Assembly: GCA_013203315.1 (NCBI GenBank) | Contig: JABMQJ010000026.1 | Coordinates: forward strand, 56,511 to 120,510 | Reading direction: 5' to 3' | Origin: Candidatus Omnitrophota bacterium | GTDB lineage: Bacteria; Omnitrophota; Gorgyraeia; JABMRN01; RBG-13-46-9 | Length of the DNA stretch: 64,000 nt | In this document: positions 1,104-28,200 of the stretch, piece by piece | Numbering within the stretch: the stretch's first letter is position 1 | Layout: the number at the start of each line of letters is the position of its first letter | Program-made: the position numbers and the translations under genes | The notes under the pieces: model-generated | Seen by the model: only the letters and a program-made list of their open reading frames with translations | What the model was told of the DNA's origin: nothing | Databases searched by the model: none

Positions 1104-1139
1104 CTTTATATTTTTTTGGCTAGTTTTATAGACCATTCA

Positions 1140-3236: not shown

Positions 3237-3304
3237 AAACAAGCTTAAACGTTGTTAGGTTATAAAAAAGCCACATTCTTACCCTTCTTTTTCCCCCCAT
3301 TCTG

Positions 3305-3313
3305 TGCTATACT
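3305..3313 (+). promoter_or_regulatory. Putative extended -10 promoter of the ECF sigma gene
   Basis: TGcTATACT about 150 bp upstream of the start; no clear -35. Confidence 0.35.
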
Positions 3314-3466
3314 CTATGTAGAGTTAAATAAAGTGCTTGAATGAAGACAACGAGCAAAACGTAAGATTTTCGACAGGCATTTTTTTTGTCAACTAACTAA
3401 AAGCTTTAAAAAAGTATTACCTATATGTATGATGCAAGTTTTACGCAAGTACTGGAGGAACCCAGA

Positions 3467-4057: not shown

Positions 4058-4121
4058 AACAAGGTGTCTATACCCTGTATATGGGGGCGTCCCCATAAAG
4101 ATGATTTTTTTTGAAATAAAG

Positions 4122-4161
4122 TGAAATATTCCGGGATTTAGGGGATTATACATAATAGAAG
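4122..4161 (+). promoter_or_regulatory. Conserved upstream motif of giant gene 1 (candidate ECF promoter)
   Basis: TGAAATATTccGGGaTTTaGGGGATTATAcaTAaTAGAAG matches 55430-55469 at 33/40 positions without gaps. Confidence 0.65.
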
Positions 4162-4181
4162 CTTAAAAAAGCTTGGCAAAA

Positions 4182-4270
4182 ATCTACGTGTTTTGAGTTT
4201 CGTATCTACGTCTTTTTTTATGTCCTGAAACTTAGGACATTTAAAAAGGGATAAATAAGGAGATCTACGT
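4182..4270 (+). repeat. Three ATCTACGT copies in the leader (4182, 4204, 4263) plus hairpin 4220-4240
   Basis: Read directly. The third copy lies between the AAGGAG RBS and the GTG start. Confidence 0.75.
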
Positions 4271-7200
4271 GATGAATGCTTGGCGTCCTTGGCAGTCTTG
4301 GCGAGTTTGGCAAGAACGCAAACTAAATAAACGCGAAAGTAATTATAATAATATAGATGCTAATGGTCTATCCGGAGGCGGTGTGTCTTCGGACGATTCT
4401 ATGGAAGGCATGGCAGTTTGGACAAAACGCCATGCCCTTTTAATTAAAACTTTAGCATGGGTTTTAGTTTTTGCTTTTATAGTTTATGACATAACATGGG
4501 CGCAGGGCGGCGAGCCGCTTAGCCTTGGCGCTAAGGCGAGCGCCGTAAAAGTAAACGGCAGAGTTCACGAAGAAGGCATCAGGATACCGCGCGACGCCGG
4601 CTGGGCTCACGAATCGCATATCAACGGCAGCGACGAATTTATATTTAACATACAAGACCCGCACGCAAGCCTCGATGCACAGCACTCAATCGTAAGAATC
4701 CTCGAGTCACTAAGCTCAAACTACGACCTGAACCTAATCGCGTTAGAAGGCGCCGAAGGCCCGATAGACATATCGTTTTTACGGACCTTCCCGGACGCTG
4801 AGATACGGAAGCACGCGGCCGAATATCTAATGCGCGAAGGCCGCATGTCAGCGGGTGAATTCTTCGCAATTGTATCCGAAAAACCGATAAAGCTCTACGG
4901 CATAGAAAATAGTCGCCTGTATCTCGAAAACGTGGAAGTATTTACGAAATTCATGGAATCGAGGCAAGGCTGCATAGACCACGTAAAAGGCGCTTTAAAA
5001 GCCCTAGAGAAATTCGCGCCAAAAGTTTACTCAAAAGACCTTCAAAAGTTATTGAAAGCGTCCAGGCTCCACGAGGAAGACAAGCTCGCATTCGTTAAGT
5101 ACTGGGAAGTTATTACGAAAATCGCAGAAGAACGCAATGTTGAACTTGGGGATTTTGCGGGCCTTCCGCAACTACTGGCAGCAATTGAAATCGAGAAGGA
5201 AATCGATACAAAAGAGCTCAACAAGGAAAGAAAGCAGCTTCTTGACGAGCTTACAAATACGCTCACAAAGCCAGAGCTCGAAGACCTCGTAAAAACATCT
5301 CTCGATTACAAAACCGGCAAAGTATCCCAAAGCCAGTTTCACAAGTACGTGATGCGCCTTGCGCTGGATAAAGGCCTTTTCCTTCAGCAATACTCCAACC
5401 TGGCAACGTTTAGCCGATACATCGCCGCTTACGAAGACATAAACTTCATGCAGCTTTTCCTCGAGATAGAGCAAGTTGAAGCCCGTCTCAGGGAGATCTT
5501 ATTCCTGAGCGATGAAGAAAGGGAGCTCTATAACTTCACAAAAGCAGTCCGCACCACAAAAAAGCTATTCGATATCGCAGTAGGCAATAGCGACTACGAA
5601 TTTATCCTGGAAAGCAAGAAATACTTCAATACAGATAACCTGCGCGAATTTATTAACAAAACCTACAAAAAATATGCCCTGATCAATGAAGATGAGTATG
5701 ACGTAAATCGCGTATTCGAAAAACTAAGTGATGGCACCGAGCTTTATAACGTAGCCCAAAAGCGTAATAATGCCATGATTTCAAACACCCTAAGAGCCAT
5801 GAGGATTAACAAGGAATACGCTGCCGCTCTCATAACCGGTGGTTTCCACTCAAAAGGCTTAGCAGAACTCATAAGAAAAAAAGAGCTTTCATACCTGATT
5901 GTAATGCCGAAATACGAAGGCGAAAACAAAAGGCCGTATATAGCCGTTCTTACACAGAAACGCCAACCTTACGAGGAACTTCTTGAAACCGGCGAATACA
6001 TGCTAGCAGTAAGGGCTTTCTGTTGGGACAGCGATCCGCGGAACATGGCAAGGGTCATAATGCCGATCGCAATATTGGCAGAACGCGGGCCTCTATCATT
6101 TGAAGATCTTGTTACGCAACACTATGAACAATTTTTACCTGTTTTTGAATACTATCAGAAGGCAAGAGAACAGTGGGGTGGCGATGGCTTGAGAACGCCG
6201 GTTGCGGAAAAAGACTTCTGCGCTATATACGGAGCAGAGGCGGATGCAAGCGGTAAACCGATTAGGGGCGAAGATGGCAAAATTCAGATAAAAACAAAAC
6301 CGGTTGTAGTTAGAACATCGGTAGCGAACACACCAGTTTTTGTCGTGCGCCTCAAAATAAACGGTGAGAGTTTTGTTGGCTGCTTCGCTGAAAAAGACGG
6401 AAATTTTGAGTACCTCAGCCTGGATAGCTCAATGGCTAAAAAAGCAATAAGGAGCGCGACACGAAAAACCAGGAGATTAGCTTCGGAAAGAAAAGAAATT
6501 ACCGCCGCAGTAGCGCGAGACGTTTCAATTGACGGGGCTGAAGGCATATTAGAAGGGCTAGGATCGCTATATATAGAGGAAAGCGCACTTAATACAGACC
6601 AAATAGCAGAGCGTGATAAGGCGCTTGAACTTATTGGAGCAGCAGCCAGTCGGCTTAATGGCCAAGAGGTAACCGTTAATAGGGCTGTTCGAGCCTTTGC
6701 AGGCGCAGCAGGTGCAGCAGGATATAGGATAGACCGAAAGAAGATCGGAGAAGACCTTCAGAATGTTATTGCAGCAGAAATAAAAAAGAAATTAACACCG
6801 GAAGCTGCAGTCATACCGGATTTAGATAACAGGCTTAGCGAAAAGATAGAAAGATCCTTAAAGGAGCACCCCGAACAGAGAAATCCGGAATCCCTAGCAA
6901 GTTTAAAACAAAAGCTGCTGGAATTATACAAAAAGATTTCGTCTTCTAAAGATATATTAGGTAACCCGGAGAAACAGGAGAAACTAGCGGCATTAATTGA
7001 ATATACATTTGACAAGCTTTTAGATCAAGACGTAGATGATCTGAAGCTCCCGTATACTCCTCACGGCGCAAAACACTCGCTTGACGTTGCTAATTATATG
7101 GAAAGCCTGGTAGAAAATACCCCCGGTCTTAAAGAAAGGCTGGAAGATCTCTACGGCGAGAATTATAAAGAAATAGTTTTTTTGCTTGGACTTCTTCATG

Positions 7201-10200
7201 ACATAGGATATGCCGGATTGGAAGGCGCTAAGAAACAATTTGGAAAAGATAAAGTCGAAAAAGGTTATCATGCTGACTTAGGTGCGGCTATGGCAAGGGA
7301 TGACTTATCCGCTATTTTGCGGGAACTTTTTGGCATGGAAAGAGATGGGTCTCGGGAAGACAAAAGCGCGTTAGACGATTTCATAGATGCGATATTGCTG
7401 CACGGCGCGGATAAACGAAGTGTAGAAGAAGAAGGTCCTGAAGGTTCCGGCGAGCATAAGCATACACCGGCAAGCGAAACTAATAACCCTCTCCTCATGC
7501 TGGTGAGGTTAGCAGATAATCTGGATGTCTCCAGGGATAGGCTGAGAGGTTGGCAGAAGAATCCGTGGTTTATGAGAATACTTTATCACATGGCGAACGA
7601 TCAGGTTCTGCAGGATATTTCAGAAAGAAAGGACCTGACAAAAGACCAACGCGAAAACTTAATCAATGAAAGATTGAAATATCTAAGGGCAGAGGAGCTT
7701 AAAAAGCTGAAAAAAAGAAAAAAACTTGCCCAAAGAGTGCGGGAAAGTGGTGATACGGAAGCCATGGAAGAGTTCTGTAATGAGTTTCAGATTGATCCGC
7801 AGACAGATCAAGAAATGATAATGCAATTATTGGAACAACTAACTAAGCCAGGCTCTGAACAGGAGTTTAAGAGAATTGAAGAAATGATTGGCAAAATGGA
7901 TAACGAGGCATTCAAGCACTTTATAGGTGCCTTGGCTATCAGGGAACTTATATTGAGCGTAGATGAAGAAGGAAATTTAGCGATAAAAGCCATCGTTACG
8001 GACAGGGCAGACAATCCTATTTGGAGGGAGGCTGCCGAATTCCAGATAAATGGTAAAGGAAGAACCAATAATGCGCTAGAGTCACTTAGTATAAACGGAA
8101 GAACTGTGAGAGTCCAAATCAGCTATGGAAAAAAGCAGTTGGAACTACCAATGCCAGGTGATCTCGGGAAACCAGTTGGTGCATTGGCCTCAGTTGCTGC
8201 ATTGGCCATTGATGTAATGGAAGCGCAGAGCGTACTAGCTGTGCCGGGAGCCGAAGTGCATGTAGAAGACGTTACCCTGCCTGCAGCCACGTCTGTAGTA
8301 GACGTTACCCCGCCTGCAGCTACGTCTGTTGTAGATACAACCCAAATCCAGCCTCAAATCGAGCTGGATGAAGCCAAGAAAGTATCTCCGTATTTAGCAA
8401 GAGTACTCCCCACATTAAGCCCAGAAATATTGAGCCAAAAAACCGGTATAAAAGCCGAGGTAGTAGACCTTGCCGGCACGCTACTTGGCATAAGAGATTA
8501 TCTTTTAATGAAAGAAGAAGGCAAAGAATTAGTCATGGCATGGATCCTGGAAGATAACGAGAGAAAACAGAAGATGATGGAAAAAGCCGGAGAAGATTAT
8601 AAAGGAGACGGTTATGATTTAGTCTTGCAGGTAGCTGAAAAGCGTTTTGTAGATGGTAAGAGAGAAAAAGAAAGCGACAGGGCTGCTGCCAGACGCGTTG
8701 CATTAGGAATGGTGGCGCAGATTATAGCATACTACGGGAAGGAAAATATCGCTGCCCCCGGTGTCGAAAAAATAACAGCCAAAGCGCTGCAGGGTAAAAT
8801 AAATAATGCCTTTACAAGGAGAGATAGGGCCAGACGCGAACAGCTTCTTGTAGAACACGGCATAGACATAGCGGAAAGTAATGCCCAGCTATTAGTAACC
8901 ACAAATACAATCGACTTGGAAGGAAGAATAGGCATATTAGGAAGGTTCGGCGTTACGGTTACCGCAGATCTTCTTTTATGCAGCGAAAAGTTATTGGAAA
9001 CCAATATACCTATTATAATTGGGCATGACATAAAACCGGAAGATATAACCGCAGATCACGTTCATAACTTTCAAGATACGTTAAGAACAGAGCGCGAGGA
9101 AGATGTAAGACACATAGCGAGCTTAGGTGCTGACGAAGAAAATGCAGGGGCGCAAGCAACCGCGCGGCACGAGGCCGTTCAAGCAAAAATAGACCGAGTG
9201 GATCGTGAGCGTGAGGCACTTGTGAGGAACTTAATATCTGCGCGTCAAAAAAAGCACAATACGCGCATGAAGGCAGAAGGCCAGAACCCGATCGAAGGTA
9301 CATACGAGGATATTGCGTTTCGCAGGGACGCGCTAGGAAAAGAAATTTTCGGCAAACTTTCCTCGCTTAAAGAGGAACTTGCACAGAATATTCCGGAGGA
9401 CGATGCAATAACAGCAATAAAGCAAGAACTGGAAGAGCTCAAAACAAGGGTAATAGAACTTGATAAGAGAAGAAGAGAAAGAAAAGGTATTTCGAGAATA
9501 CTTAATCTCGTAACCCGAATGATAATAGGAAGGCGTGTCCGTAGGATAGCTCGGCTGGAATTTGAACTAAACGAACGAATTCCGCAAGCCGCGCTCATGA
9601 TTCAAAAGATAGATCTTTATGAAGCAGGATTGCTTCAGGCCGAGCCGCAGGATATAGGCATGTTGCGAAATGAAATCGAGAATGCCCTTTCTCGAAATGA
9701 CGCCAAAGACTTCAAAAAGCTAGTAAGAGAATATCTGACAAAAACAAGGGTATTAAACGATATAGATAACGAGCTAGACAAATTTGAATCGGATCGAGAA
9801 AATCAGGTTGCCCACGAGGAACGATTCTACATGTATTGCCCGCAGTCTGTAAGGGACTATATAGAGGTAAGGCGCTCTGAGATAGCCGAGCTTAAGGCCA
9901 AGATAGATGCGCTTGACGCAAAAATAGAATCCGGAAGAACCGTGAAAGGATTCAGGAGAATCCTTAGAGGTCGTCGCTTTGGAATTTTGACTTTGTTAAC
10001 ACGTGTTAGAAAATTATTTCATAAATTGCAGCTCAACAGATTAGAGGCACAGTCAACCCCGGAAGCGATTATTGCCAGGCTTTCCGAGGCTGCAAGGAGA
10101 CACCTTGCATTCCAAACCAATGAATGGTCCAGATTCAACGGATTTTTAGGAGGTCTTGCGGATATTAACACGCTTGTCAAGGGAGGTATTCCGGTGATAG

Positions 10201-13200
10201 CAGACATGGCAGTTCGTCTTGTTTCAAGGGAGCGGCAAAAACCCCTTACACCGGAGGAAAGAAAAGAACTTGAAGACAAAATAGATGAAAGAGTAAGAGA
10301 ACAATTAGGCATTGAAATCACCGATGACGAAATAAAAATAGATGGGAATGGCAAAATACAAAGCGAAATTGCATTATTTTTCGGAAGAAACCTGAATTTA
10401 AAACCCGGCGCACAGCAGCCATCATTCCTGAGAGACTTCGTTTTTCTTACCGCTGTTAAATCCGGAAAATTCAGAATAAAAGATAAAGATGGAAATGTCA
10501 AAGAAGTGAATCTTAGTAAAAGGTATGAAGCGCTTACCGGTGAAGAAAAACAAGCATTCGATAGCGAACTTGCCGAGATATGCCGCGGCGCAGAAGATGA
10601 CCTGGTAAAATTAGCCATACACGATTTTCTTATACCATGGGCCGGAGAACGGCAACCCAATATAGTAGCTACGCTCTCTGCAAAAAGTGAAGAACTAATG
10701 AAGAGCCTCGAGGCGCGCAATGAAGCCATAATCGATCTTTTCGAAAAGAATTTGTTAGTTACAGATAAGGAAATGATAATACAAATGGAAGCGCCGAGCA
10801 TACCCTGGAGAGATCTCGGCAGGGTAGCTGCTACCATTGCCGGTATTTCCCTTGTTGGGGGCATCATTGCAGCGACCGGGGGATGTGGTGCATCGCCAGT
10901 ACTCAACCAGCCTGCCGTTGAACAAGCAGCGCAGCAAGCTGCGCAGCAAGTTGCAGAAGTACCGCAAGAACCAGCCTTGCCGCCGGCAGAGCCAACAAAA
11001 GCAACCGTACCTACCCCTGCGAAACAACCGGAAAAGCGTGTTACAAAACCTAAAGCAAAGACACCCAAAGCCGAAGTAGCAGAGGAACCCGAGGTAGAGA
11101 AACCCAAGGTATCGGAAGGATTAGATGCATTAGATGTATTATTGCCACAGGTACCGGGAGAAGGCGAATGGCTAGATAAATTAGTGCCAGAGGTAGAACC
11201 GGGAGCAGCGATACCTAGAGCAAGAGTGCCAGAGATGGTAGAGCTGTCCGTGCGAGACTTCCATGAGAGCCTGTATGGTTTCCCACGGGATCAAGCCGAC
11301 GGACTTAAAGACACTCATTTAACACGCGATGATTTGAAGAATATCTTTTCAAGGCTTAGCGGAAGTGTCGGACATAATCAGTCGTGGGAAGGTGCGCTTA
11401 GTCAAACAACAATACATATGAACGGAGTTTTAAGATGGCTTCGTGATAACAACATAAAACCTGAACAAATTCCTATGCTCTGGAGCCGCATTCCGCGCAC
11501 AATGCTTACAGGCGACCAAGCGCATACGATAGACCAATTAAGCCCCGGATTTTTGGAAGTATTGGGCCTTGCAATGAGCTTTTACGCAAACGATATTGCA
11601 AGCCCCGCAAATATTGAGGAACGCGGAGGAAGAGCGCTTTTGGCGCAAAAAAGAAGCGAAATATTACGCGACCTGAAAAATTATATAGCAGGCGGAAACA
11701 TTATTGCGAAGCCGGGTTCGCGTGCCGCACGCTTTGAAAATATCCCCGAATCACGCCGAAGGCTTGAACTTGGGTGGAATAAATTTGTGACTAATAGCCT
11801 TGGATCGATAGATGCCGCAACTATGACTCTTTCCGATTCAAAGGACTTAAGAAGTGAACAGGAAAAGTTATCCCCGGCGCTTGATATTATACTTGGACGA
11901 CCGGTGAACCTTAGGAGTAAAGTTGATAGAAACCTACTGCAGACCCTCGCTTCCTTTGCAAAACTTAACGGAATTAAAGCAGAGGACATGACCTTGCTTA
12001 TAAAAGCCGGTATGCCATTAGGACAGCTTGTACCACTATTTCATAGTTCGGCTACAATATCAGAACAACAAAGAATCCAAGCCAATATGACCCAAGAAGA
12101 GATCAGCAGAACACATGCCCGCCATAATGCAATAGCGCTTAGCCGAGCTCGCCAAAAACATATAGCAAGGCTAGATAAGGCCAACCAAAGATTCCAGAGA
12201 AGAATGAGTACTCTTGAATCTCAAGGTCTTACAGGCCCACGAACAGAATACGTGCAGAGACAATTAGCAGACTTACAAAGCCAAATAGATGCTCAGCAAA
12301 CTCTCTTAGGTTATTGGATAGAAGCAGATAATTCCAAGTATTACTTCGAGAGGGAAATAAAAGAGAGTACAACATCACCTGGGGACATCAGGCAAGAAAT
12401 CGATGGAACCATAGCCGCAAGCAACAGCATAATATTGTTAAACGAACATTTAAATAATTTCCTTAGCATAATAAAGGCGACGTTCGAGAATCTCCGTCCG
12501 GGCGAGAGCTTGAGCGATATACTTGCCGAGGGAGATACGGCGCAACTCGCTAGGCTCGGACGTGAAGCTTATGCGGTAAGAGCAAATTTTGCAACTATGT
12601 ACGAGGTCATTTCAAGAGTCGCTGACCAATACGAGAACCCGCTAGCAAGCGCACTTTACTTTGCCTCCCAGAACGGGAAGGCTTTTCCGGGCACATATGT
12701 TGATGAAAATGGTGCTAGAAAAAAACTGGCTTATTTTGTGGAAAAAGACGGCCAGCGCCCGATCATAAAAGTTATTTATGACAATGAGCCGGAACCGCGC
12801 AGGACCTATGTAGACTGCGAATTTGATGAAAGAGAATGGCGAAATATAGAGGCGTCGGTAAAAGGTGAACGTGACCCCAACCCTACCAGGGATATTAACG
12901 ATCCAACCAAGCCCGGTAAGCTTCTTGAAAAATTAGGTCCCGCTATGGAAATAGAAGAAGGCATAGAGGGAATTCCCGAACCCGTAATCGGCTTACCCGG
13001 GGGTATAGGCGACTTGGGCGTGACTGGTGAAGATCTCTTACAGCCCGCGACACAACCCAAAGTGCAAACCGAAGCTGAAAAAGCGGAAGAAGCCCGTCTG
13101 GAAAAGGTGAAGGGAGAGATTGCAACTAACTTTGACCTAGCAAATAAGGCACTGGATGGGGCAACTGAGGCCCTTAACGCGGATAACCTCGAAAAAGCGG

Positions 13201-16200
13201 ACGACGAAATAGAAAAAGCAAAGGCTTTATACGATAGACTTGTAAGATATTCCTTCCGGAATGAGCCGGTAAAGCCCGGGGACCTTAAGGCGCTAAAAAA
13301 CAGGATATCCGAAGCCGAGACTCAGCGGAAGGAAAGCCGGATATATAAGAGAGTACAAAAGCTTGAAAAAAGGTTATCTAGAATCTCAATAACCATAGAA
13401 AACATACGTAGAAACGCGAATAAATTTGAAAATGAAACGGACTATAAACGCGCGAAAGATATAATTGACGGCATATTCGCTTCTTTAAAGAAAGAATTTT
13501 CCACCGGGGAATTGGAGTATAAAAAACAAGAAATAGATGCCTTAAAAGTGGAGTCCCGGCTCGCCGATAGTTTTGCCAGGGCATTTTTATTATTCAAGAA
13601 AGCAAAACAGGATCAAGCAAAATTCGATGCCCAAAGGGAAGAAGCAAAGCGTAAGTACGAGGCGATAAAGGAAAAAATAACCAACGCCCCGCGACTTCAG
13701 GGACTTCCCCTTGCCCGGGGAATGGTGCACGTATTTCTGCATGGCAACGGCAGCCCCAGCCTCGCGCGATTTTTTAACAGAAACAAACCGAGGCACGGAA
13801 GATTTGACGAAGGCGATGTTATTGTAAGTGATACACCGGTACCCGATCATCTTAAGGGTAAGAATGTGGAATGGTATCGTTATAAAATAAGTTTCCTCAG
13901 GAAAGAAAAAATTCCCCTTAAGTCCGGCGATCCCAAAGCGACCCATGTTTCGGTAGACGGAAAAGAGTACTCGGTATATGGCCCTGTTTACATGGTATTG
14001 GAAAAGATAGAAAAAGGCAAAAAAACTATAAGGGTAGCGAACGATACAATTGATTTGATGAAGCTTGTAGGCACAGGGTATACACTTAATGATGAAAATG
14101 GAAATCCGCTGTTCTCAGAAGCCGTAGTAAAACTCGCCAAGGACAACGACTACGATGCGGCTGCGATACAATGGAATATAGATTTATCGAGACAGAGACA
14201 CGAAGGCATACGCCAGGCGAAAGAGAACTCAGAGGAGCATGTGGTAAGACTGATACTCGATTCCTGGCAGGCCCATGCGGAAAATCTTGAGATTGAAGAA
14301 GCGTGGGCGGAAATGCTTCGCACAATGTCCGAGGGCACAAAGGTTGAACTGGGCATATCAATAGGGGCCTATACAAAGTCGCTTCCATTTGTGTCGGTGT
14401 GGGCCGGTATTACCAGGATCATAGATAAAAGAAGAGATGCTTATGTCAGCCAGGGTTTCTGGAAATATTATGTTAAGATTCAAGAGGTTAAGAATAGACA
14501 GGTTAAGCGGGTAAGCAGGGCCCTCGCGGACCTGACTGAACTGGGAGAAGTAAGGGCCGAATTGACACGCCTCAAAGGCGATGAAACGAATTATAAAAAT
14601 CTCCTGAAGAAAGAAAGGGACAAAAAATCTCAAAGGGCAATAAGGGCCAGGCTGGCTTCTATCGGCGCAGAAATAGCAGGGCTCCAGGCCCGCGACAGCG
14701 AGTTAAGCGAAGGCGTTCTTACTGAAATGGGCGAAAAGCTTAAGATAGATGAGATAGTAATCGATCCTAATAGACGTCTGAGGAAATGGCAGATTAACCG
14801 GATTCTTGCTCAATATGGGGTAGACGCGGGCACGGTTTATCCTGTTATGCGCGCATACTATCTCAAAAAATGGGCTGAGGCCAAACAAAAAGAAGCAGAA
14901 GCAGGAAAAACACCTGTATATACCTCTAAATCCATCGTAAGCGGTTCTGCCAGCGCCGCCGGTTTTTATGGCGGCATATTCGCGAGCATGGATGCCAAAT
15001 TCGTAGATAAGGAACTGACCCCGGCAGTGGCTGATGTAATAAAACTACGGCAGGATGTAAATGCCAATTGGACGGCATACAATTCGCAGCAGAAAAAGAA
15101 AAAACTCGAAGTCATTTCTAAGGCGATAGACGAAGTTATAGATGCCTCGAATAGGAAAATCAAGAATCTGGCAGAGCGCAAAGCCGATGCGGAGAAGAAA
15201 TACAAAAAAGGACTTTTAACCTTTGGACAATACGACGAGGCGCTTATAAAACTGAGGGAAGCAGAAAAGGAACACTCCGCTATAGTAACGCAGGGAAGCG
15301 CAATACAATACGATTTATGGATGCTTCATGACGGCCTTGACAGACAGCTGGGAGACGCCGTTAAGCTCAAGAGAGAAAAAGGCGCAATAACCGCAAGTAA
15401 GTTCATGGAAGATGTGCTCAAAACATCCCGCGAGATTGGCGCCGGCAAAATGGCAGATGTAGATGTGCTGGAACATACCCGGCGCTTGAAGGAAGGGAAG
15501 GATAAAGGCGTAGTTACAATTGAAGGCGTTGGTGGCTTTGTAAGCACCGGCTCGGACGGAAAAGGTATTTCCTTGGGCGCGGGGGCATCAACAACCCTTA
15601 AAATCGATACCTCGCGGGAACAGAAATTAGATATATTGGCAGATACCCTTCTTATATCTGAATTAAGAAAAGAAGCAACGGAAGAAGACGCGGCCATTAA
15701 TGCCTTAAACGCACTCATTAGTTATAGGGGTATAAAGAAACAGACAGAATACGCGACCGCAGGGAAGAAGCATTACGAGGACTATAAAAAAGGCGCCGGC
15801 ACACGAGAAGAAAAAGCCGAAGCCGAAGGATATCTGGCTGACGCGGTTCTTAATTTGAGAGGAGCCGAGCGATGGCTGACATCCGCAATGAGAGAGGCAA
15901 TCACGTTAAGAGGCGGAGATTTTGCGAATGTTACGGATATAGATGACCCCACTGTATTATCCGGTATTATAGCCGAACTAAAGGTGAATCGTTATAAAAG
16001 AGAACTTGAGATATTAGACCTGCAGAAGAAAATTATAGAGGCCATGGCCACAATAATAGCCAAAGGAGATTCGTTCTCCCTGGCTTTAGGCCTTGCCTAC
16101 GCGGTTCAATCAGATGGTGGTTCCACGCTGCAGACGATCGGATTTAACATACAAATGGAATCGAATATATTCGGTCCGTTCTTACCCCTTATTATCGGTA

Positions 16201-19200
16201 ACCCGGAAAAAATAGATTTAGAACTAGCGGAAAAACTCTACCAGGAAAAGCGAGCCAAAATACAGGCCGAAGCTAAGGCGAGCGATGAAAAAATTGACAG
16301 CCTGGAAGTCCGGGTAACCATAGCTAGGCAAGCTGTCGATAGTGCTAAAAAGGCTCTTACAGAAGAAAAAGAGGCGAAGAAAAAAGCCCTTAGGCTAGCC
16401 GAACTCGAAAAAGCGAAAAGTAACTTACAAAGCGCGCAAACTGATCTCGAACTGGAAGAACTCCAAGCGCAGGCATATAAAGGTGTCCAGCGTGTGCCGA
16501 GAGAGGAAGGGATTTCAGTAAAAGAGGCGGAAAAATTAAGGCTAAGGTTGGCAGAAGCAAAGCGAAAGGCGGATGTCATAGATGAAGAAACTGGAAGGGT
16601 GGAGCCACAAGAGGCAAGGGAAAGAGAAGCTAGGGTCAGCGGTGCTGTTAATTTTAGAATTGTCCTCCTCGACCCAAGGAAGCCGGATACGTCTGAATAT
16701 GATATCGAAGCCCTTAGAGAAGAATCCAGAGAAAAAGTCGAAGAAGGATTAAAAAATTATAAAACTCTTAAAGTTCAAGCCGCACGATATGGTGTAGAGC
16801 TGGCGTGGCTGAATTATCTTAGGGCAATAGCGGTAAAACAGTTAAATCAATTCAAAGGCGACCTTCCGGCGTTAAAGCCGTTTGACAATGAAGAGACCAG
16901 TAGAATGAGGAGATTTACAAAATTTGTATCGGAATTAGATGCCAAAATTGCTAATATTGACGGAAAATTGGAAGAAACGGAAAAACAGATTCCCTACGCG
17001 GGCGATGCGATTGGCGTGGTATACGTGGGCGACAAGATTGCCATAATAGTAGAAACCAAGCCCAACGGGAAAGAAGCAATAAGAGAGCTGAAGAAAATAA
17101 GTGAAAAAGATCGCGCCGCCGTATTGAAAGAGATAGAAGACCGGGACCCTGAACTGAGGCGGTTGAAAGCCCTTCGCGCACAAGCCCAAAAAATGCACGA
17201 GGCCACAGAGCCCCAACTGGGTTTTCTACCCGTTATTGATTTAAAGGGCATGTCTGGCATACCTATAACAGGCGCCCAGCTTGACCTTACATGGACTCTT
17301 TTCGATTCCGGGCTTAACGAGGCCAATAGGTTACTGGCGTGGATAAAATTAGTAAGGCAGGACCTATTAATTAAAGTGGAAGAAAACAAAAAGTACAACA
17401 GTCTTATTTTAGCCCTGGATCAACTTGAGAAGAAGACTTTGCGTTTAAAGAAGGCTGCAACGGCTAGAATGCGCTATCTCGGTTACATGGATGAGAACGG
17501 TAAGTTCGTTCCGGGTTTATTGACAGATGTCATAGAATCGTTGGACAATCAGAATACGAATTTGGATGAAGTTAGAAGAATTTTCCGAGAGTCGCAGGAC
17601 GCGGTAAGCGAAAATGCCGAAGCCGCTTTTGAAAGTTTAGCCGCCGTAGAAAATTTTATCGTTTCTTTAGAAGTAATAGGTGTTGATCCCGCAAAATATC
17701 TTAAAAAGCCAAAAAAATTATCAAAACCGGCCATAGAACCTGCGCAGCCGACGACTACTAGGCCGAGCGTTGCGCCGGCGGTGAGTGAATACAAAGTTCC
17801 CACCCAAAAGGTGCAAGATAAGGACATAAAAGACGAGATAGGGATTCTTATAGAGGCATCCGGCATGAGTGAACGAGCGGCCGTATTTGCGGTAATATCT
17901 GCTAAACGATTTGTCGAGATGAACCGTAATATAGTTAACGTGCAGGGCCGTGAGCCATGGACGTCTAAATTACACTTTATAGGGATGTCAGAATACGCCA
18001 GAAAAATAGCACGGAAAATGGCAGAAGATCCGGGCTTCAAAATTCCTGATCACCTCGGCTTCAGAAGCATCTATGATTTATCTACTACAATGGAGGAATC
18101 GGGACAAGTTAACGACCCAAAGACAGGCATTTATCCGGGCCTGTTCAACCTGCTTGGCCTGGCACATTATATGCAATGCTACGAAGATAGATTTGGTAAA
18201 GAGAAAGCCACGGCCCATTTTAATGAGGTTATAGCTAAAATTAAAGGTCCAAGGGATGAAGGATGGGAGATAGGGATACAGAAAAGATTAGCGGAACTTG
18301 GCCTTGGAAAAACAGAAGAGGAGATGCATGCAGGCAGGGTTGCCCTTTCCGGTATAGCCGGTAGAGCTGTCGGCAGAGACCTTAACGTTCACACGAACCT
18401 TCATGACATGGGTATTGCGGGCAGGTTCTACAATTTCGGCCTTTTGCAACACTTAAATCCGGGGCAACTTGATGCTATGGTAGATGTTATGCGGGAACTA
18501 CGGTCGTTCCTTAACAGTATATTCGATAATTATGGGGACATGACGAATGACGAATTATCAAAACAGCAGGGTTCCTACAGGCTGAGATTGAACAGTGAAA
18601 GATTGAAGACGCTTACTCCCGGAACGCCGGAATATAAACATGTTGAGATGCTCGTAGAAAGGGCAAGAAATGCGCTCATAGAAGAATTAGAACTCGACCG
18701 TCTCTTCAGCGCCGCCAGGGCAATATTAGAGCAGAGCGGCAAGGTGCTGAAGAATATGTCGAAGAAGGACATACAGGCAATTCTCAAGACCACGATTAGA
18801 AGCAAGGCGTGGCGTGACTCCCTGCAAGATAATATAATTCCACGAATGAAAGGTGAAGACGGCAAGTTCCTAAGCGATTACGAAAATCCTTTATTTGACG
18901 CACTTAACTTTTCCGATAGTCGCGGAAAAGCCTACCCGGGCAAGGACGCAAAAGGAAAACGCGTAACTTATTTTGTGGAAAGGATGAAAATCGATGGAAA
19001 AGGAAAATTACAGCCGGTTGTAAAAATTATCTACGCTGGCGAGCAAGAACCGCACAAAATCTATATAGGCCACTTTGACAAAGAAGCATGGTTAAAGGGA
19101 GACGCGTTGCCTATTCTGGACTTGGAAGGGAACAAGCCAACAAAGCCCGTCATAGAATTAGGTCCCGCTATAGAAGTAGAAAAAGGCATAGAGGCGGTTC

Positions 19201-22200
19201 CCGAACCCGAACCCGGAATCGGCCCACGCGGGGCGATAGGTCTCTTGGGCGAGGCTGACGAAGTCGAGAAAAAGTTGCTAAGTGAAACCGGAAGACGCGA
19301 GTATGTGCCGTTGTCCGCAGCCGGAATGAAGGGTCTCCTGGCGGTATACCAGCGTGACGAAAAAACGGGCGTACGCGGTATGCGGATAGGAACCGTAAAA
19401 AATCTAAAGCTAAATGAAAAAGGAGAAGTCATAGGTGGGGATATTGTTGAGAAGAAATCGCTAAGTGAAACCGGAATACGCGAGTATGTGCCCCTGTCCA
19501 TAGAAGGTATGGAGGGCTTCCTGGCAGTATACCAACATGACAAAGAAACGGGTGTACGCGGCGAACGAATAGGAACTGTAAAAAATCCAAAGATAAATGA
19601 AAAAGGAGAAGTCATAGGCGGAGATATTGTTGATAGAAGAAGAACCGCTACAATTGGCTCACGCGAATACGTAATTGCAAGAGTTGAAGATGGAAATGAT
19701 ATACCGGAAAGCCTAGCATACCTTCCTGGAGACATGAAGGATGTAGTGCTTGTGTATTCCGGATATGACGAAAACCAGCCGATAGGATACGCTGAAAGCG
19801 GTAAGATCAGCTTCAACGAAGACGGAACAGCCACGTTAAGCGATGATGTCATAATTATGAGGACAGCCCGGGTGCCGTTTACAGGTGAACTTGGGGCAGT
19901 AGGCCACCTTTATGCAAATGGAGAATATTACAATCTTCGTAAGGGCGAAGTTCATGGTTTTGACGGAAAATATACTGCGAAATTATACAAAATCAAAGAA
20001 TTCGAAAAAGAACGTGTAGAAATAAGATTTACAAGTACCTCGAAACATCCACGTCATGATTCGGCCAGAGAATCTATCGTATTGGTCCAGGACATGGAAA
20101 CAGGCCTACCTATCCGTGAAGAAAATGTGCCACTGGTGATACGCGATGGAAAACAAGCTTATGTTGTTTACGGGACAATACACTTTTTCAATTGCAATGA
20201 AGAAGGAAGGCCGCAGTACGTGGAACTACGATTATCAGACGGCAAATTCCATGATGGCGTGTCAACGCGCAAGGCTAAAACAATACGATCAATGGAATGC
20301 GAATACAGAGAAGACGGAACGCGTGTCAATACCCGATGGACATACGGAAAAGGAAAAGAGTGGTGGAAGAACAAAATCTTCCAGCGTGGAGTAGAAGCCG
20401 TTGTGGCCCCGGCAACTCGCATGAAAGGCGTATCGGTTGTCACGCTTGCTCAAGTAAGGTGGAAAAATGCATGGTGGAAAACCCAGGCAAGTTTTGGAAG
20501 TGGGATAATAAAGTTAACAGAGCCATTATCCCAAACCGACAGAGGGTGGGAGGCATGGCAGTCAGAGTTTGACGTTGAAATGCAGGATGCCGGACATTCC
20601 ACCGCACCGATGGGAAGTGCTCAACAAGCTGCCCCCCATGACGATAATTGGAAAGATATGACTAAATTACCGCCGCAACCCCGCACCGCAATAACTCCGA
20701 ATAGTATTGCAGGAGAGGTCTACGAGATAAATAAGGTGATCGAAAAGCACCATCCCAATCTCATGAAAAGGCTTAATCAACATTTGTCGCAAGAAAATTG
20801 GAACGAATTCTGGGCTGATATATGCGAGATACACCGATTAAACGTATGGCCTGCCAGGGTCCACCTTGAAGGCGTTGCGCACTATCTCGATCTTCTTTTA
20901 ACTGAAATCGAAGAAGAAGGAGGAGACGTAACTCTTCTTTTCAGTGACCTCGAATTGGCAACGATTACATTTAAGGATAGAAAGCTTCGGGGAGTACTTG
21001 CAGCAGGAACAAGAGGAACTGACCCAGCGTTAGGCGAGGGATTGGATATTTTGATAAATGTTTTAAAAATTGCAGATAACCTAAAAAGCCGCGAAGATTC
21101 AATACTTTATATGAGTGAGTGGGAGATGAAGGCGCTTGGCGCCGAAACCAAAGAAGGAATAGTCACAGCAAGGCTTCGCATTTTCCTAAAATTTCTTACA
21201 GACTATAAAAACGGAAAAATGACCAAGAGAGATTTTGAATACGAACTAAAAATCGTGAACAACACAATTCACGAGTACGCAGTCCGGCATAATAGAGATG
21301 AACAACGCCAGGGAATAAGAGCTATCAAACCACTGCTGAAAAAACTTTATCCGGGACAGGAAAGATTGGATGAAGAGATCAACGTGTATGAAGCATCCGC
21401 GAATATGCTCTACTGGTTTATGGTAATGCTGGACCTCTCGCCGAAAAAAGTCGAACAACTTATGCCGCTACTTTCCAAGTTAAAAGCACGCCTCAATGAG
21501 TCATTGTTGGAATATGATGAATCTTTTGTGGAAATATTATTATACATAGCGTCTTTCAGGATATCCGGACCGAAGACTTACGAAGCTGACCGCCTCTTCC
21601 GGGCCAAGTTACAAGCACGCCTCAATGAGTCATTGTTGAAATATGATGAATCTTATATGCCAACATTATTAAACATAGCGTCTTTCAGGATATCCGGACG
21701 CCACACAACTAATAGAGGTATCGCGAGGGCTTACGAAATTGACCGCCTCTTCTGGGCGTTGATAGCACTGGTAGAGAATACCACTGACACGGAAATCGCA
21801 GACCTTACCACGGAAGAAATCGAAGATATGATGAATAAAACAATCAACAATGATAGATGGATAGAATACTTTAATATGGCAATCGATGTTCAGATAAAAA
21901 ATGACACGATGCCCGATGTGTTTAAGTCAGCTTATTATGCAAGTGCGTCTCAGAGGCCACCCGCAAAGATAGCACGAATAAGAGAAGATGTACCTACAAA
22001 AAGTGACACACACTATCTGAGCATAACCTATATACCAGGCTCTGAAATAAAAGAATCCAACGTAAAAGCCTATACCGTATCCGAAGATGCAGATGGGAAG
22101 CAGGAGATGATGAAGTTTATTATAAAGAAGGATGCAGAGGGCCACCCGATAGTAGAGCTTTTTAAGGGTGGCGAAAGCGATCCCAGCCAGGTTTGGGAAG

Positions 22201-25200
22201 GCGTATTCGATGTGAATGAATGGCTTGTAGGATCTGAGCTGGAAGAATGCATTACAATAGACGGGAAACCCGGCAAGCTTTTAGAGACATTAGAAGAGGC
22301 AGAGGTCATCGAAGAACTAGGAGAAGAGGGTGTGCCGGCGCTTCCCGCTCCAGAAGTTCCTGGACCCGCAGTCGGCGAACGCGGGCCAATAGGTGCCTTG
22401 GGCGCAACTAAACCGGCAGAAAAAGTATTGGCAACAACGCCGGATGGAACAAAAAAGTTCGTCCAGCGTCCGGATGGCAGTGTATGGCTAGTGGCGAAAG
22501 GAGACCCGAATCATCTTGAGATGTCTAGAGGAAAGACGCAAGCATGGGCGGACAGGAAAAATGCGCCACCCGAACCTCGCAGTGATATAAACCCGGAAAC
22601 GATAAGCGAGGAAGTAAGCGGAAAAACGGAATCTATCGCTGCAACGCTTGAAAAATATTACCCGGAAGAAATGAAAGCGCTTTCCGAAGTTATTACGCCG
22701 AAACAGTGGAACGAAATGTGGGCAGAAGTTTGCGAAGTTCATAGGCTAACCCCTAGAGGGGCCAAGGAGCATTTAGAGCGCGTAAATTATTGGTTGAATG
22801 AAATTCTTAAATGGGAAGAAAATAATGGTGTAAAAATTGACATTCCGGAGGATATGTACTCGCTTCTTTACGCCATTCGGCCGCTAAAAAATGAGGTATG
22901 GCCCATAGAGAAGGCGCTTCCCGGGTTACTGCGAAAATTGACCTATGTCGATTTTATGGCATCATTGGAAAAGCATAGGTTGTTATTTGATGCCCCGGTT
23001 CTGAAGCTAGCCGACGCAACAGTCAGGAAAGATCTTCGGGAGGTTTTCGTTCGTTTCTTCAAGATACTAAAGGACCATCAGAAAGGGAAGCATGACAAGA
23101 GTGCCATTTTAAGATTTAGAAGGGAAATAGATGATAGAAACGCAGTGATTGTTGATCTCGCATTACGGCATAATACCGGGGAGCAGCTAACTGGTGAGAC
23201 CGCTGCGCTTGAAAAAATCTCAAAACTTTTCCCGGAGTGGAAACTAAAGTATGGAGTGAGCCAGAAGGGTTTTCACGACTCTCATATATTGTTTTCATTT
23301 TACATGTTTATGGTAACCCAGGACCTTTCATCCGGTAAGATCGATGAGCTTATGCCTTTATTGCAGGCGCTGAAACCTTTTCTTAATGATTCCTTCGGCG
23401 AATACAAAGACATGGAATTAGGTAAGTTGCTAAAAACGCCGCGTGGCTTCGATCTTGACGGGGTTATACAAGTGTGGAAAACTCTGGGTGAGGACTTAAA
23501 GAAGCTTTGGGGCGGCGAGGTGCATAAGCAAATGCTTAGAGGCCTTGAACTTGACCGTCTCTTTGAGGCAGCACGGCTAATAGTAGAATATCACAGCGGG
23601 GGAAAAAGGATAAAGGATTTATCAGGAAAAGAGATACAAGAGATTCTAAAACAGACGCTCGGGAAGAAAGGCTACACGGGATTTCTTGCCAGGGTAATTA
23701 ATATTCAAAAGAAGAACGGCCTTACCCCGGACATGCATAAATCAATTGATTGCGCGAATACACGCAAGACACCGCCACAAGCCGAAACGGTGACAAGAAA
23801 AGACCTCCCCGGAAAACTACCGGGAGGAAAATATTACCTGAGCACGACCTACGAAAGCGGCTACAGGACCCCGGAGGAATATACCTTATATAAAGATGCG
23901 GAAGGAGAGACAAAGATAATAACATTTTCTCTAAGAAAAGACGGAACTGTTAGGATAATATACGGCAATGATGAGGCGGCTTCGCAAGTTTGGAAGGGCA
24001 AATTTAATAAGAATGCGTGGTTACAAGGAAAGGCTTTAAAAGATTGCATTACAATAGACGGCGAAAAAGGCCAGCTTTTAGAGGAATTAGGTAAGCCAGA
24101 AGATGTGGAAAAAGGTATAAAACTAGAAGAGCCTGCGGTGCCCACGCCCACGCCTGCGCCCGGAATAAGTGAACAGGTACTTGGACGTGCAACTCAAGGC
24201 GCAAAGAGCGCAGTTGCAGGCACCGGTTCACCTTTGACGAATTTTGTGATGATCGTAGGTATGAGTGCGATAGGCGTTGTAACCGACTCTCAACAAGCAC
24301 AAGAGCCCCCAGCGCAAGTGGCGCAAGTGGCACCGGCGAAGTCGGCGCAACCGGCGAAAAAGGCGGCGACGCCGCCGGCGCAAGCGAAAAAGCCGACAAC
24401 GCAGAAGGCACAAACACAACCCGCAGCGAAACTGAAACCTGCTGAAAAAGCTAATCTACTCATGAACTACAGTGGGCCAGATGGAAAAGATTCATACGGC
24501 CGTAATGCCGGAGAAAATTTCTGGGGACATGTTGGCATAAGCGATCCTATACAGGCAGAAAAAACAAGAAAAGCTTTTCGACACATGAAAAAGCTGGGCA
24601 TCGACTCCGTGAGAATGGGATTAGTAGCCGATGGCCGCTCACTAATGGACGAAAATGGAAAGGTTGACCCCCAAAAACTTAATAAGTTCATGGAGGACGT
24701 AGAGGCTTTACTTAAAATTGCAGAGGAACAAGAAATCCAAATAGAAATAGAATTTTCCCTTATCGACCATCTTATAGCGTATAAGGGCAGAATAGATAAC
24801 GGCGTCCCAATTTTTGGTAGGGATGAAGTAATAAAAGACGCTGCAGGATTTGTTAAAGACTTCCTGACACCATTCCTTCAGAAATTCGGGAAACATAAGG
24901 CGATAAAAGGAATCGACATTATAAACGAACCGGAATGGATCTGGATTAATACCCCCGTTACAAAGGACAAGGTAAAACAATTTATAAGAATATGTTCGAA
25001 AGCCATAAGGAAATGGGCTCCGGGTAAAACCATAACAGTCGGTGTTAATACCGAGTATACCGGAGAAATGGCCGCATTAGTTCGCGAAGGCGTGCTGGAC
25101 TACGTAGCCATTCACCACTATGAGGATAGGTTCAGAAGGAAAAAAGCCGACGGCACATTCGAGAAAGATAATTTCGCGACATTAGAACGCTTCGTAAAGG

Positions 25201-28200
25201 CACTTAGCGTGCCTGAGGCACAAAGAGTGGCATGGGCAATCGAAGAATCCCAGATAAGAGAAGAAGATATCCCTCGGGTTCTGGAAATCATTAATAAGTA
25301 TAACGGAAAGATAATCGGAATTTGGGGATGGAATGATAGTGACAAGAGAAGCCTTAACCCGGCAACGCGCGGTCCCTTACTTAACAAACTGCAACAGCTT
25401 AGAAAAGAACTACCTGTGCCGCCTACTGTGACACCGCCCATGCATACCGTAGAAATGACGAAGGCGGTTAGCGAATTAGACCCCGGAAAAGCGCCGAACG
25501 AACCTGTTTCCCCTCTAACAGCACCCAAGATTGTGCGCCCGTCCAAAAAAGACATTAACCGGGTCCGCGTGCGCAAGAAAAAAGACGAAGACGGAAAAAT
25601 TAGCGAATCCTATAGATATGAAAAACGAACGAGAGATCACGAAGACCCCAGAAAGCGCAAACACAGCAAAATTCTTGATATCGGCGTTGGAGAAGTAGAA
25701 AGAACGGAAATTCCCAGAGCAGGCGTCGACCTTATTTATATAATACAGTTTGACCCTTTAACAACAGAAATAGTACGCATGGAGTTATGGCGCGGGAAGT
25801 TAAAGGTAGAAGACAAAGGGAAGGTAATAAGCTACTTACCTGAAGGAGACCTTGAGCCCATGCTCGTAGAGTACGCGGAATTCGAATACAATCCTGACAA
25901 GACAGTAACGATGCGCCTCGCAAGGCGCGATGTTCTGGGAGGCGAAGAAAACTACATAGAGGAATACGTATTTAAAAAAGTAAAATTCGAGGATGGCAAA
26001 ATAAACATAATGGTTTCGAAGACTGTCTATGACAAAAGCCTCGTAGAAAAAGCTACGGTAATTACGCAGATTGACAGGAATGAAAAAACCGGCGAAATAA
26101 CAGAAAGGGAATGGATACAGTGGCAGGGCCAAGAACTGCAGAAGTCATCGATGACTGTCTACGCCTCTCACATAGATAAAACGGGCTTCTTGGTATGGGA
26201 AAGGCAAAGACGCAGAGACTTTGGCACCGGTGCGTGGTTAGAGACATTACGCAAAAAGGTTAAAGGGCAGAAAATAGAAATTGAGAAAGGTAAAAATAAA
26301 AAGGGCGCGTATTATGATGGCAAGGGAGGAAAAAGCCGCATTTACTATGCAGATGGCGGTAGGTGGGTTAGCATGGAAGACGGCGTTTCCGCTGCGGCCG
26401 AAATTAAGAAAGGCCAGAAGAGAGATAAGCCGTTCGACCCTATAAAAATCGGTTATACCGAAGCCATAGATATAGAAGGCAAAAAACATGTATTATATGA
26501 AGCCGACACCGAGATAGAGAACAACGCAAAGTTTGACCACAAAAATAATACACTTACATTACCTGAGGAGATTACCGTTGATGGCAAAGACTTTAAAATC
26601 CCCGATGCCGCGCGAACTTACAAACTCCCTGCTAAACTACCTGGCGATAGGGCGATATATAAATTCCATGTAAAGAGGGAATACGACAGCGAGAAGAATA
26701 AAGTGTTAACTACCCAAGTAGAGTGGGTAGTAAGGGATGAGGCGGAAAAGCTGATCTACAAGGTTACAAAGAATTTGATAACGGGCGAGACAGAAGTTTA
26801 TGAACTTCATCCCGAGATGAAGATGGAAATAACCGAATTGGAACTTGAAGCAAAACCGGGCGAACATCATGACCAGACACATAAAGATGTTTCGGAAGGG
26901 ACATTTTACGACGAAAAGGGTAGAGAAAAGGGAAAAGTATATCACAGAATGGTTTTTGACCCCAGGTACAGGGATAAAGACAAATGGCGTTTCCTGCAGG
27001 AAAGAGGAAAAATAGTCGAAGAGAAGGTGCGTGATGTCGAGAACAACAGGGAAATCACCGTGCTTTATAGCATAACAGAAACGATAGAGTTCAAAGAAGA
27101 TGGTTCGCAGGTCGTGAGAAAGGTAAAAGTATCCGTAGATGAAAATTATAAACCCGATGGCAGGGTTCGAGAGGAGCTCATTGTAAAAAAGGATAAATAT
27201 GGCAGGATCAAACAGGTTGATGGGGAACCGGATAAATTTGGCATACGCGACGGGCTTACTACTCAGGGTGTTAAGGATGTCGGAAAAAAGACAGAATCCC
27301 GCTTTACCCCGCAAACGTATAAATTTGTGCCGGTTACGAAACCGGGGCAGGAGTTGCCGGGGTTAATTACGGATAATAAGGGTGTGCAAAAGGAATATGT
27401 GCTCGCGACTACAGGACGCGATTCTAAAGGTAAATTAGTTCTAAATTTCAAAAAAACCGATAAACGCTTCGGTTACACCCAAGTTGTGGTGCCCGAAGGC
27501 GCAAGATGGGTTACAGAGACTAAGGAAGATGTAATAAGGGATGAAAAAACAGGGAAAGAGATTACAAAGAAACAAGTGGTATTTGGCCTCTACGACGCCC
27601 ATGGGAAACCTTTATATCAGGATATAGCTACTAAATACGGTGATAACGGAATAGTCCACCAGGTTTTGGTTTATAACCCCACTGATAGCACGATGGCAGA
27701 ATACGCCACCTACAGAAAAAATTGGCAGGATAAAGAAACACTCATGCTGAAAAAAGTTTCACAACTCCTGCGCTATCGCAACTCCGAACTGATCGATCAG
27801 TGGTTACTATTATACGAAGAATCATATCTAAAAGGATTTGTAAGGGAATACACATATGATATGCAAAGGGCCCTTAGCGGCGCTTTTGGCGGCATGCAAC
27901 CCCTCACGAGTAAAAAATGGAAACTAAACAAAGACGGTTCGCGCGGCGAATTGACAGAGCACATGGCATTTCTTTACTATGGGCCGACAGGGCAGCGCCT
28001 GATTGTAGATATGCGTGACAGGAGAGACGACAACGGAAACCTCATAGATCACGAAACGCCGTTGGCAGCGGGTCAGGCAGTGACGGGCCTTGTTACCCCG
28101 TTTGCAATAGGGGAAGAATTCGAAACAGAAGAGTGGAATACAAAGATTGTAGAGCGTCCGGACGGAACGCTATGGATTGACACTTCACAAGGCGACCTTC

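Follow-up and report, generated by a model that had tools for sequence, protein, structure and literature searches.

The ordinary TolC duct is built from three identical subunits. In the TolC family (E. coli TolC 1EK9, OprM, VceC, CusC, CmeC, MtrE; PF02321) each protomer holds two repeats, made of a hairpin, a long descending helix and two shorter ascending helices, and the duct has six hairpins in all. Synthase-dependent polysaccharide secretion combines a GT2 synthase, a glycoside hydrolase and an outer-membrane outlet, as for cellulose (BcsA/B/Z/C), Pel, Pga and alginate, and the known outlets BcsC, PgaA, AlgE and PelB are 16-18-stranded monomeric barrels with TPR scaffolds. Here we analysed a stretch of 64,000 nucleotides (hereafter the window) of a Candidatus Omnitrophota bacterium (assembly GCA_013203315.1, contig JABMQJ010000026.1, positions 56,511 to 120,510 of the forward strand), in which a giant open reading frame (ORF) contains a module with the same repeat as the TolC family, likewise two per protomer-equivalent and six hairpins per putative duct. 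Residues 3295-4471 of the giant protein very probably adopt a single-chain TolC-like fold. We also judge it rather probable that the module consists of three tandem two-repeat protomers of the TolC/outer-membrane factor (OMF) type in one chain, forming a pseudo-trimeric duct that serves as an outlet for a polymer.

The module and its parts, with the evidence by which each was delimited, are the following.

4269..54101, plus strand: giant ORF of 16,610 aa that carries the module (ORF list).
14151..17681, plus strand: TolC-like module of six repeats (P0001, 1,177 aa, giant-protein residues 3295-4471; Pfam OEP, AlphaFold2, Foldseek).
14220..15338, plus strand: protomer-equivalent A, units 1-2 (P0001 24-396; VIA, hhalign).
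15387..16487, plus strand: protomer-equivalent B, units 3-4 (P0001 413-779; VIA, Pfam OEP).
16488..17681, plus strand: protomer-equivalent C, units 5-6 (P0001 780-1177; hhalign).

The translation of 14151-17681 is free of stops over its 1,177 aa and lies inside the giant ORF, its start at residue 3295 being 1,090 residues past the nearest hydrophobic helix. A sequence-only reading of this DNA had proposed that a single-chain TolC is encoded within the giant protein, and this proposal is supported by OEP homology, by the fold predicted with AlphaFold2 and by predicted strand pairing.

The Pfam OEP family matched the region with 30.4 bits (cut-off 22, E 4.1e-7) and was the sole Pfam family above its cut-off there. 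When each repeat was searched separately with the OEP hidden Markov model, using 190-aa cuts, only unit 3 exceeded the cut-off (22.4 bits), while units 2 and 4 gave 14.1 and 11.6 bits and units 1, 5 and 6 gave nothing; units 3-4 together reached 28.6 bits in two stretches. Of the 20 rows in the module alignment, 8 also matched OEP, with a best E of 1.9e-14, and no other Pfam family was recurrent among them. For a profile-profile comparison with hhalign, the OMF profile was made from seven ordinary Omnitrophota OMFs, five of them from the module's own genome, and the unit profiles from 11 sequences. Unit 6 gave by far the strongest match (P 4.9e-11), followed by unit 3 (P 3.4e-5), unit 2 (P 6.3e-5) and unit 4 (P 7.7e-5), and then by unit 1 (P 0.0049) and unit 5 (P 0.061). 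The similarity to OEP is thus not confined to a single repeat, since units 2, 3, 4 and 6 match the OMF profile. The sixth unit had been described as the only clear motif match, which agrees with its first place in the profile comparison but not with Pfam OEP, which favours unit 3.

The units were also compared with one another, and matches in register were found between units 1 and 5 (P 6.1e-6), units 1 and 3 (P 3.3e-5) and units 3 and 4 (P 8.8e-5). In the controls, reversed units against the OMF profile gave a best P of 2.8e-3, 30 reversed-versus-forward unit pairs a best P of 1.6e-3, and column-shuffled units P values of 0.6 or worse. The odd units being alike and the even units resembling the second OMF repeat, the pattern is the one expected of three tandem two-repeat protomers. 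Against the OMF profile, protomer-equivalent A gave a hhalign probability of 92% (P 6.6e-7) over unit 2, and protomer-equivalent C gave 97% (P 9.7e-11) over unit 6. Reciprocally, the unit-6 part of the module profile retrieved ordinary two-repeat proteins of 438 aa and 480 aa from other genomes, which match Pfam OEP with E 1e-46 and 1e-50 and one of which adjoins an HlyD-type gene.

This repeat relationship was visible only with the 11-sequence profile. BLASTP self-comparison of the region showed no internal repeats, unit-versus-unit hhalign with a 3-sequence alignment gave nothing below P 0.006, the same 3-sequence alignment reached a hhalign probability of only 3% against the genome's five own OMFs, and phmmer of the region against 1.84 billion representatives returned 0 matches, so that even the protein itself was missed. 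Such results would be expected if the OEP similarity were a chance match in a coiled-coil-rich region bearing no relationship to TolC. However, the P values of the real comparisons are 1.5 to 8 orders of magnitude better than those of the controls, reversed or shuffled, the reciprocal profile search retrieves canonical OEP proteins, and the TolC fold described below arose from an alignment containing no ordinary OMFs and without templates. A chance match is therefore strongly disfavoured, and we find it scarcely credible.

The structure of P0001 was predicted as a monomer with AlphaFold2 from an alignment of 20 rows. Giant proteins supplied every row (14 full modules and 6 partial ones), and neither templates nor any ordinary OMF row were used. 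The model reached a mean predicted local distance difference test score (pLDDT) of 77.7 and a predicted template-modelling score (pTM) of 0.73, a value that, over 1,177 residues, indicates that the model is confident about the relative placement of the three parts. Foldseek placed OMFs at all of ranks 1-42, with E down to 6.9e-9 and a target TM-score of up to 0.67. In the VIA comparison the top 29 entries were likewise all OMFs (Z 14.6-21.4), the next, unrelated entry having a Z of 10.2, and the alignments fell on model residues 24-396 or 413-779 and covered TolC residues 1-406. These two parts of the model were each superposed on whole solved protomers (TolC, OprM, VceC) with Z 16-21 and rmsd 2.8-4.7 over 334-359 residues. 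Protomer-equivalent A matched VceC with Z 18.1 (rmsd 3.1 over 359 aa) and residues 1-406 of E. coli TolC (1ek9) with Z 16.8 (rmsd 2.9 over 348 aa), and protomer-equivalent B matched residues 1-400 of Klebsiella TolC with Z 21.0 (rmsd 4.1 over 335 aa). In the predicted model, A and B are each a full TolC protomer. The secondary structure of protomer-equivalent C fits a TolC protomer as well, with lower confidence and with a weak unit 5; pLDDT falls below 50 at residues 783-829 and 948-983. TolC-like clusters in the ESM Atlas (at 0.93, with low recognition, 1807) were taken as a lead only.

Strand positions were assigned by DSSP on the 20-row AlphaFold2 model, in P0001 numbering, and compared with the beta-moment of the sequences.

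14337..14423, plus strand: hairpin 1, strands 63-74 and 77-91 (DSSP, beta-moment peak).
14916..14999, plus strand: hairpin 2, strands 256-268 and 271-283 (DSSP, beta-moment).
15513..15608, plus strand: hairpin 3, strands 455-468 and 473-486 (DSSP, beta-moment).
16071..16157, plus strand: hairpin 4, strands 641-655 and 658-669 (DSSP, beta-moment).
16641..16670, plus strand: hairpin 5, descending strand 831-840 only (DSSP, beta-moment).
17232..17303, plus strand: hairpin 6, strands 1028-1037 and 1040-1051 (DSSP, beta-moment).

Six units near 14335, 14910, 15505, 16070, 16620 and 17220 had been proposed from the letters, and these sites agree with the predicted strands and with the beta-periodicity, the strongest windows of which coincide with all six hairpin sites in the 20-sequence alignment. 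Low-charge stretches of 25-60 residues, spaced by about 190 residues, were found at nt 14334, 14895, 15507, 16032 and 17202; the low-charge criterion did not pick out the fifth unit. In the AlphaFold2 model a helix of 54-62 residues comes after every hairpin, with shorter helices behind it; six such long helices are predicted, along with 11 strands that are 10-15 residues in length. After hairpin 6 a W-T-L-F-D-S-G stretch leads into the long helix. The strands of hairpin 2 are, by sequence, only weakly hydrophobic.

The site of hairpin 5 is the variable spot of the family. Window positions 16488-16640 (P0001 780-830), before the descending strand of hairpin 5, form an insertion hot spot in the columns of alignment A5. 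In a 7-sequence alignment the window's copy, the shortest of the family, has a gap at this site, and genomes G090, G606, G615 and G616 have a hydrophobic strand-like stretch followed by variable insertions. The insertions are long in G003 and G004 and by far the longest in G090, where the insertion is of low complexity, rich in N, S, T and A, and low in charge over its aa 1311-1543. The hot spot of unit 5 is presumably an external loop.

Six-frame searches of related genomes yielded two full-length relatives of the module, with 31-35% identity, in G003 and G004, and iterated profiles added colinear modules, 13-17% identical, that lie within further giant ORFs of 7,000-13,000 aa. Among 401 sampled genomes of the class, 20 matched the 11-sequence profile with E no higher than 1e-6; for about ten the match extended over most of the module, a few were partial owing to contig ends, and four were ordinary OEP-type or other short frames with a partial profile match. 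The class-wide search and two family-level searches together gave near-complete modules in 15 or more genomes, which belong to three GTDB families. Across these three families the six hairpin positions, the helix lengths and the motifs that follow the strands are kept at 13-34% identity. Homologous-protein searches gave 0 matches, with a 10,000-aa reference in which residues 3295-4471 were scored or with alignment A1 at near lengths, and scans of genome and metagenome contigs with A1 returned only the G003 and G004 relatives and an identical copy of one of them.

Several of the related genomes deserve separate mention. G338 has two module copies on contig C68, at 41269-45330 and 83068-85065, in separate giant ORFs (10,443 aa and more than 3,165 aa). 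On the G004 contig (8,669 nt) the homologous giant gene is spread over three frames (1..1272, 1223..4369 and 4437..8669). The module match begins 39 nt ahead of the first ATG in the third of these, an arrangement suggestive of frameshifts, from misassembly or decay, rather than of a genuine gene start. In G020 two contigs (G020:C41:2-364 and G020:C6:127570-127794) both end within the first 120 residues of the module, which hints at an assembly interrupted by two nearly identical copies; G020 gave no match to the remainder of the module.

Closure of the ring was examined with ESMFold2 by giving P0001 residues 1-412 and 780-1177, which are not adjacent in sequence, as two separate chains. Three runs gave ipSAE values of 0.73, 0.71 and 0.75, compared with 0.00 for the best control; the mark set for this score is attained by 58 of 80 solved complexes and by 2 of 110 mismatched pairs. 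The three runs share at least 83% of their contacts, with a partner pLDDT of 58 or more. In the confident contacts, residues 59-76, with the module's first strand, pair with residues 1038-1055, with its last, and the long helix 1057-1109 meets helices 38-57 and 159-199. These predicted strand and helix contacts would close both the barrel and the tunnel. Of the closed 12-strand barrel that the sequence-only reading had named as supporting evidence, the closure is retained in the prediction, as the first and last strands are predicted to pair, and the strand count is not, as 11 long strands are predicted and hairpin 5 is only half present.

Several observations count against a complete single-chain duct. 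Hairpin 5 has no ascending strand in the model, which leaves 11 long strands instead of 12, and residues 783-829, before its remaining strand, are highly charged with pLDDT below 50. Protomer-equivalent C reached a pLDDT of only 59-69 in the two-chain runs, and no VIA row fell on residues 780-1177 alone, although this null result is uninformative because each solved chain shows only its best placement. With only 3 rows the AlphaFold2 model was poor (pLDDT 48.8, pTM 0.34); nonetheless, its residues 413-779 match whole TolC protomers with Z 15.4. Units 1 and 5 stay within the control range against the OMF profile, with no direct match, and are tied to OEP only through units 3 and 1, respectively (P 3.3e-5 and 6.1e-6). 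NCBIfam placed no TolC model on the region, and PDB sequence searches with the protein and with alignment A1 gave chance matches only, with E 0.018 or worse. The two-chain result may partly reflect the predictor's memory of solved TolC trimers and speaks to likeness, not to binding, and it is from pTM and predicted contacts that we infer a closed barrel with an open lumen.

Taken together, the broken unit 5 with its charged, low-confidence stretch, the weak or absent direct OEP similarity of units 1 and 5 and the weakly hydrophobic strands of hairpin 2 could be read as marks of an OEP-derived relic, that is, a periplasmic helical scaffold with degenerate hairpins and without a closed channel inserted in the membrane. 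Conservation argues otherwise, for hairpin positions, helix lengths and post-strand motifs have persisted in three families at identities as low as 13%, and so do the whole-chain pTM of 0.73 and the predicted ring closure with controls at 0.00. We consider a relic very improbable.

The position of the module relative to the membranes was approached with a Kyte-Doolittle hydrophobicity scan of the giant protein, and its possible function through the enzyme domains of the same chain.

4437..4493, plus strand: transmembrane helix 1 (giant-protein residues 57-75; Kyte-Doolittle).
10824..10880, plus strand: transmembrane helix 2 (residues 2186-2204), the last before the module (Kyte-Doolittle).
24561..25076, plus strand: GH5 cellulase-like domain (Pfam Cellulase, E 8.8e-6, 25.8 bits, cut-off 23.5).
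30081..30137, plus strand: transmembrane helix 3 (residues 8605-8623), the first past the loop, with RRR on its C-terminal side (Kyte-Doolittle).
33000..35999, plus strand: part of a putative multi-pass, cellulose-synthase-like GT2 module (Pfam Glyco_trans_2_3, transmembrane scan).

No hydrophobic helix was found between residues 2204 and 8605, a stretch of about 6,400 residues that holds both the module and the GH5 domain, and about 30 more helices follow beyond residue 8605. Helix 2 has Arg residues on its N-terminal side and a Pro/Ala-rich linker after it; by the positive-inside rule, these Arg residues and the RRR after helix 3 put the whole stretch outside the cytoplasm. A TolC protomer has its N and C termini in the periplasm, which would allow the module to be inserted in a periplasmic loop. 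The barrel would then be put into the outer membrane by the barrel assembly machinery (BAM), the remaining chain being anchored in the inner membrane; BamA is present in the genome (Omp85 E 1.8e-74). Outer-membrane insertion of the module is, at this stage, a prediction from the model and the topology. Two side observations concern the helices upstream: helix 1 could be a signal peptide if translation begins at a later Met, and the end of helix 2 shows a Cys-containing G-G-C stretch that is loosely lipobox-like.

The polysaccharide exit idea is backed by circumstantial evidence, namely the putative GT2 synthase module and the GH5 domain in the same chain. The GT2 segment matches Pfam Glyco_trans_2_3 with E 8.8e-4, below the cut-off, in a region with many transmembrane helices. 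Its linkage to the module was assessed by searching a 1,000-aa piece of it in ten other module-bearing genomes. In six of them (G003, G231, G338, G594, G606 and G615) the segment was found in the same giant ORF as the module, with 28-49% identity and 6.7-11.6 kb downstream of it. In the proposed mechanism, the polymer made by the GT2 module would leave through the TolC-like outlet of the same chain, a beta-barrel atop a helical tunnel about 55-60 residues long, and the GH5 domain in the module's loop would have a BcsZ-like trimming role.

Three points speak against this mechanism. The GT2 query had no match in the other four of the ten genomes (G006, G090, G300 and G607). By charge, transmembrane helices 1 and 2 both look N-in/C-out, which is mutually exclusive. 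In addition, we know of no polysaccharide synthase system with a TolC-type outlet. In G090 the giant ORF meets the contig end about 3,100 aa past the module. We regard a role of the module as a polysaccharide outlet as possible, a little short of probable. More tentative is the wider proposal that one polypeptide constitutes a complete trans-envelope machine, with an inner-membrane polymerase, a periplasmic hydrolase and its own asymmetric TolC-type outer-membrane duct assembled by BAM.

The evidence from AlphaFold2, VIA and ESMFold2 would hold equally if the single-chain barrel were real and served mainly as an outer-membrane anchor, or as a duct bringing parts of the chain or enzymes such as GH5 to the surface. 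The module is embedded among thousands of residues of other domains, in one stretch free of transmembrane helices, the four genomes without a GT2 match fit such a role, and the hot spot at hairpin 5, absent in the window and longest in G090, suggests a surface-exposed, fast-evolving element. To build a lumen of the TolC type, about 20-35 angstroms, merely for anchoring would be costly, the ORF continues into the GT2 module in the window as well as in the six genomes named above, and no cleavage sites or passenger-like signals were identified. The text of a 2023 preprint proposes prey attachment and cell-wall digestion for giant Omnitrophota proteins (10.1101/2023.11.21.568195), in line with a display function. 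On balance, anchoring or display as the main role appears unlikely, and a polymer outlet is the reading that we prefer.

The homology to the OEP family also allows the ordinary role of an OMF, in which an efflux or type-I-like secretion pump would use the module as its exit duct, the adaptor and the inner-membrane transporter being encoded elsewhere or lying within the giant chain. Ordinary OMFs fused to RND pumps do exist in the same phylum (G091:C31 and G032:C88), so that coupling of a duct to a transporter at the level of the chain occurs there. A search of the giant ORF and of the window's flanking genes with Pfam, however, gave no HlyD/MFP, ABC or RND family, and five ordinary OMF genes are already encoded in the same genome; this role is improbable for the module. 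The two fusions came to attention as frames of about 1,500 aa matching unit 6 and were considered as free-standing single-chain TolC proteins, which was rejected, as each is an RND-OMF fusion with one protomer. At G091:C31, 10320-14810, minus strand, a 1,497-aa ORF joins a full AcrB-type RND pump (ACR_tran E 1e-207) to a C-terminal, ordinary two-repeat OEP/TolC protomer, with an HlyD-type adaptor gene directly upstream. The whole contig G032:C88 is occupied by an ORF of at least 1,520 aa with a full AcrB-type RND pump and a C-terminal ordinary OEP/TolC protomer. Such a fusion of pump and duct in one chain is itself unusual.

The host genome is 1.5 Mb in size and 97% complete. Along the giant ORF, Pfam matches comprise HD, OEP, GH5 cellulase, GT2, deaminase, GDPD, NTP transferase, class-II aldolase and HATPase, and upstream of it lie an M48 peptidase fragment, a UvrD helicase and an ECF sigma factor. 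Downstream, at window positions 55560-63998, a second very long ORF of more than 2,813 aa runs off the window and contains PPDK_N, GNAT acetyltransferase and MbnB/TglH-like domains. About 140 aa past the module, positions 18096-18500 (giant-protein residues 4610-4741) encode a conserved low-charge stretch without any family match; the G090 module has its counterpart at equal distance, so that the downstream neighbour of the module is conserved too.

A natural single-chain TolC would break the threefold symmetry of the duct and leave its thirds free to evolve separately, as the hot spot of unit 5 illustrates, and it would show, by a natural example, that a homotrimer is not the only way to build a TolC duct. 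It would also raise the question of how BAM handles a barrel located 3,300 residues into a chain that is held in the inner membrane, and one protein would physically link the inner and the outer membrane. The module would give a concrete role to one of the many unannotated stretches in the giant proteins of Omnitrophota. If the link to GT2 holds, it would represent a fourth kind of outer-membrane outlet for bacterial polysaccharides and a new outlet type for synthase-dependent export.

Omnitrophota giant proteins of the type described here, membrane proteins longer than 10,000 aa with many transmembrane helices and strings of enzyme domains, have been reported (10.1101/2023.11.21.568195; 10.64898/2026.06.07.730766). 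Term searches of the main texts of these two reports gave no mention of TolC, efflux or an outer-membrane duct, and our full-text literature searches returned no published description of a natural single-chain, pseudo-trimeric or tandem six-repeat TolC. The second report dismisses as artefacts two 'BETA' calls made by DeepTMHMM for proteins 10-15 thousand aa long, in which long periplasmic regions are interspersed with short strands (10.64898/2026.06.07.730766); these calls could correspond to the TolC-like module, which may account for the strands that were set aside.

In comparison with Bcs-like systems, the giant ORF would share all three types of parts, with a putative GT2 synthase and with a hydrolase of GH5 where BcsZ is of GH8. 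The Bcs-like parts are separate proteins, whereas here they are modules of one 16,610-aa chain, and the Bcs-like outlet is a 16-18-stranded porin with TPR, whereas the sole outer-membrane-type module found in the giant chain is TolC-like. Synthase and duct may be coupled within this chain. The RND pump-OMF fusions of G091 and G032 share the covalent link of a TolC-type module to an inner-membrane transporter; they carry one ordinary C-terminal two-repeat protomer and would still have to trimerise, whereas the present module has all three equivalents.

The closest relationship is to the TolC family itself, from which the module differs in several respects. Members of the family are homotrimers, while the module is one chain of three diverged protomer-equivalents, and the duct can therefore be asymmetric. 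They have their own N-terminal signal peptide (with a lipobox in the NodT/OprM branch) and work with an HlyD/MFP adaptor and a pump encoded nearby, and the module has neither signal and no such genes nearby. Unlike the hairpins of TolC, unit 5 of the window's copy lacks a recognisable ascending strand, and sequence identity to solved OMFs is only 10-15%. The profile, structural and conservation data together support the view that the module, which some of the Omnitrophota conserve, is a single-chain, pseudo-trimeric variant of the TolC family within a giant envelope protein.

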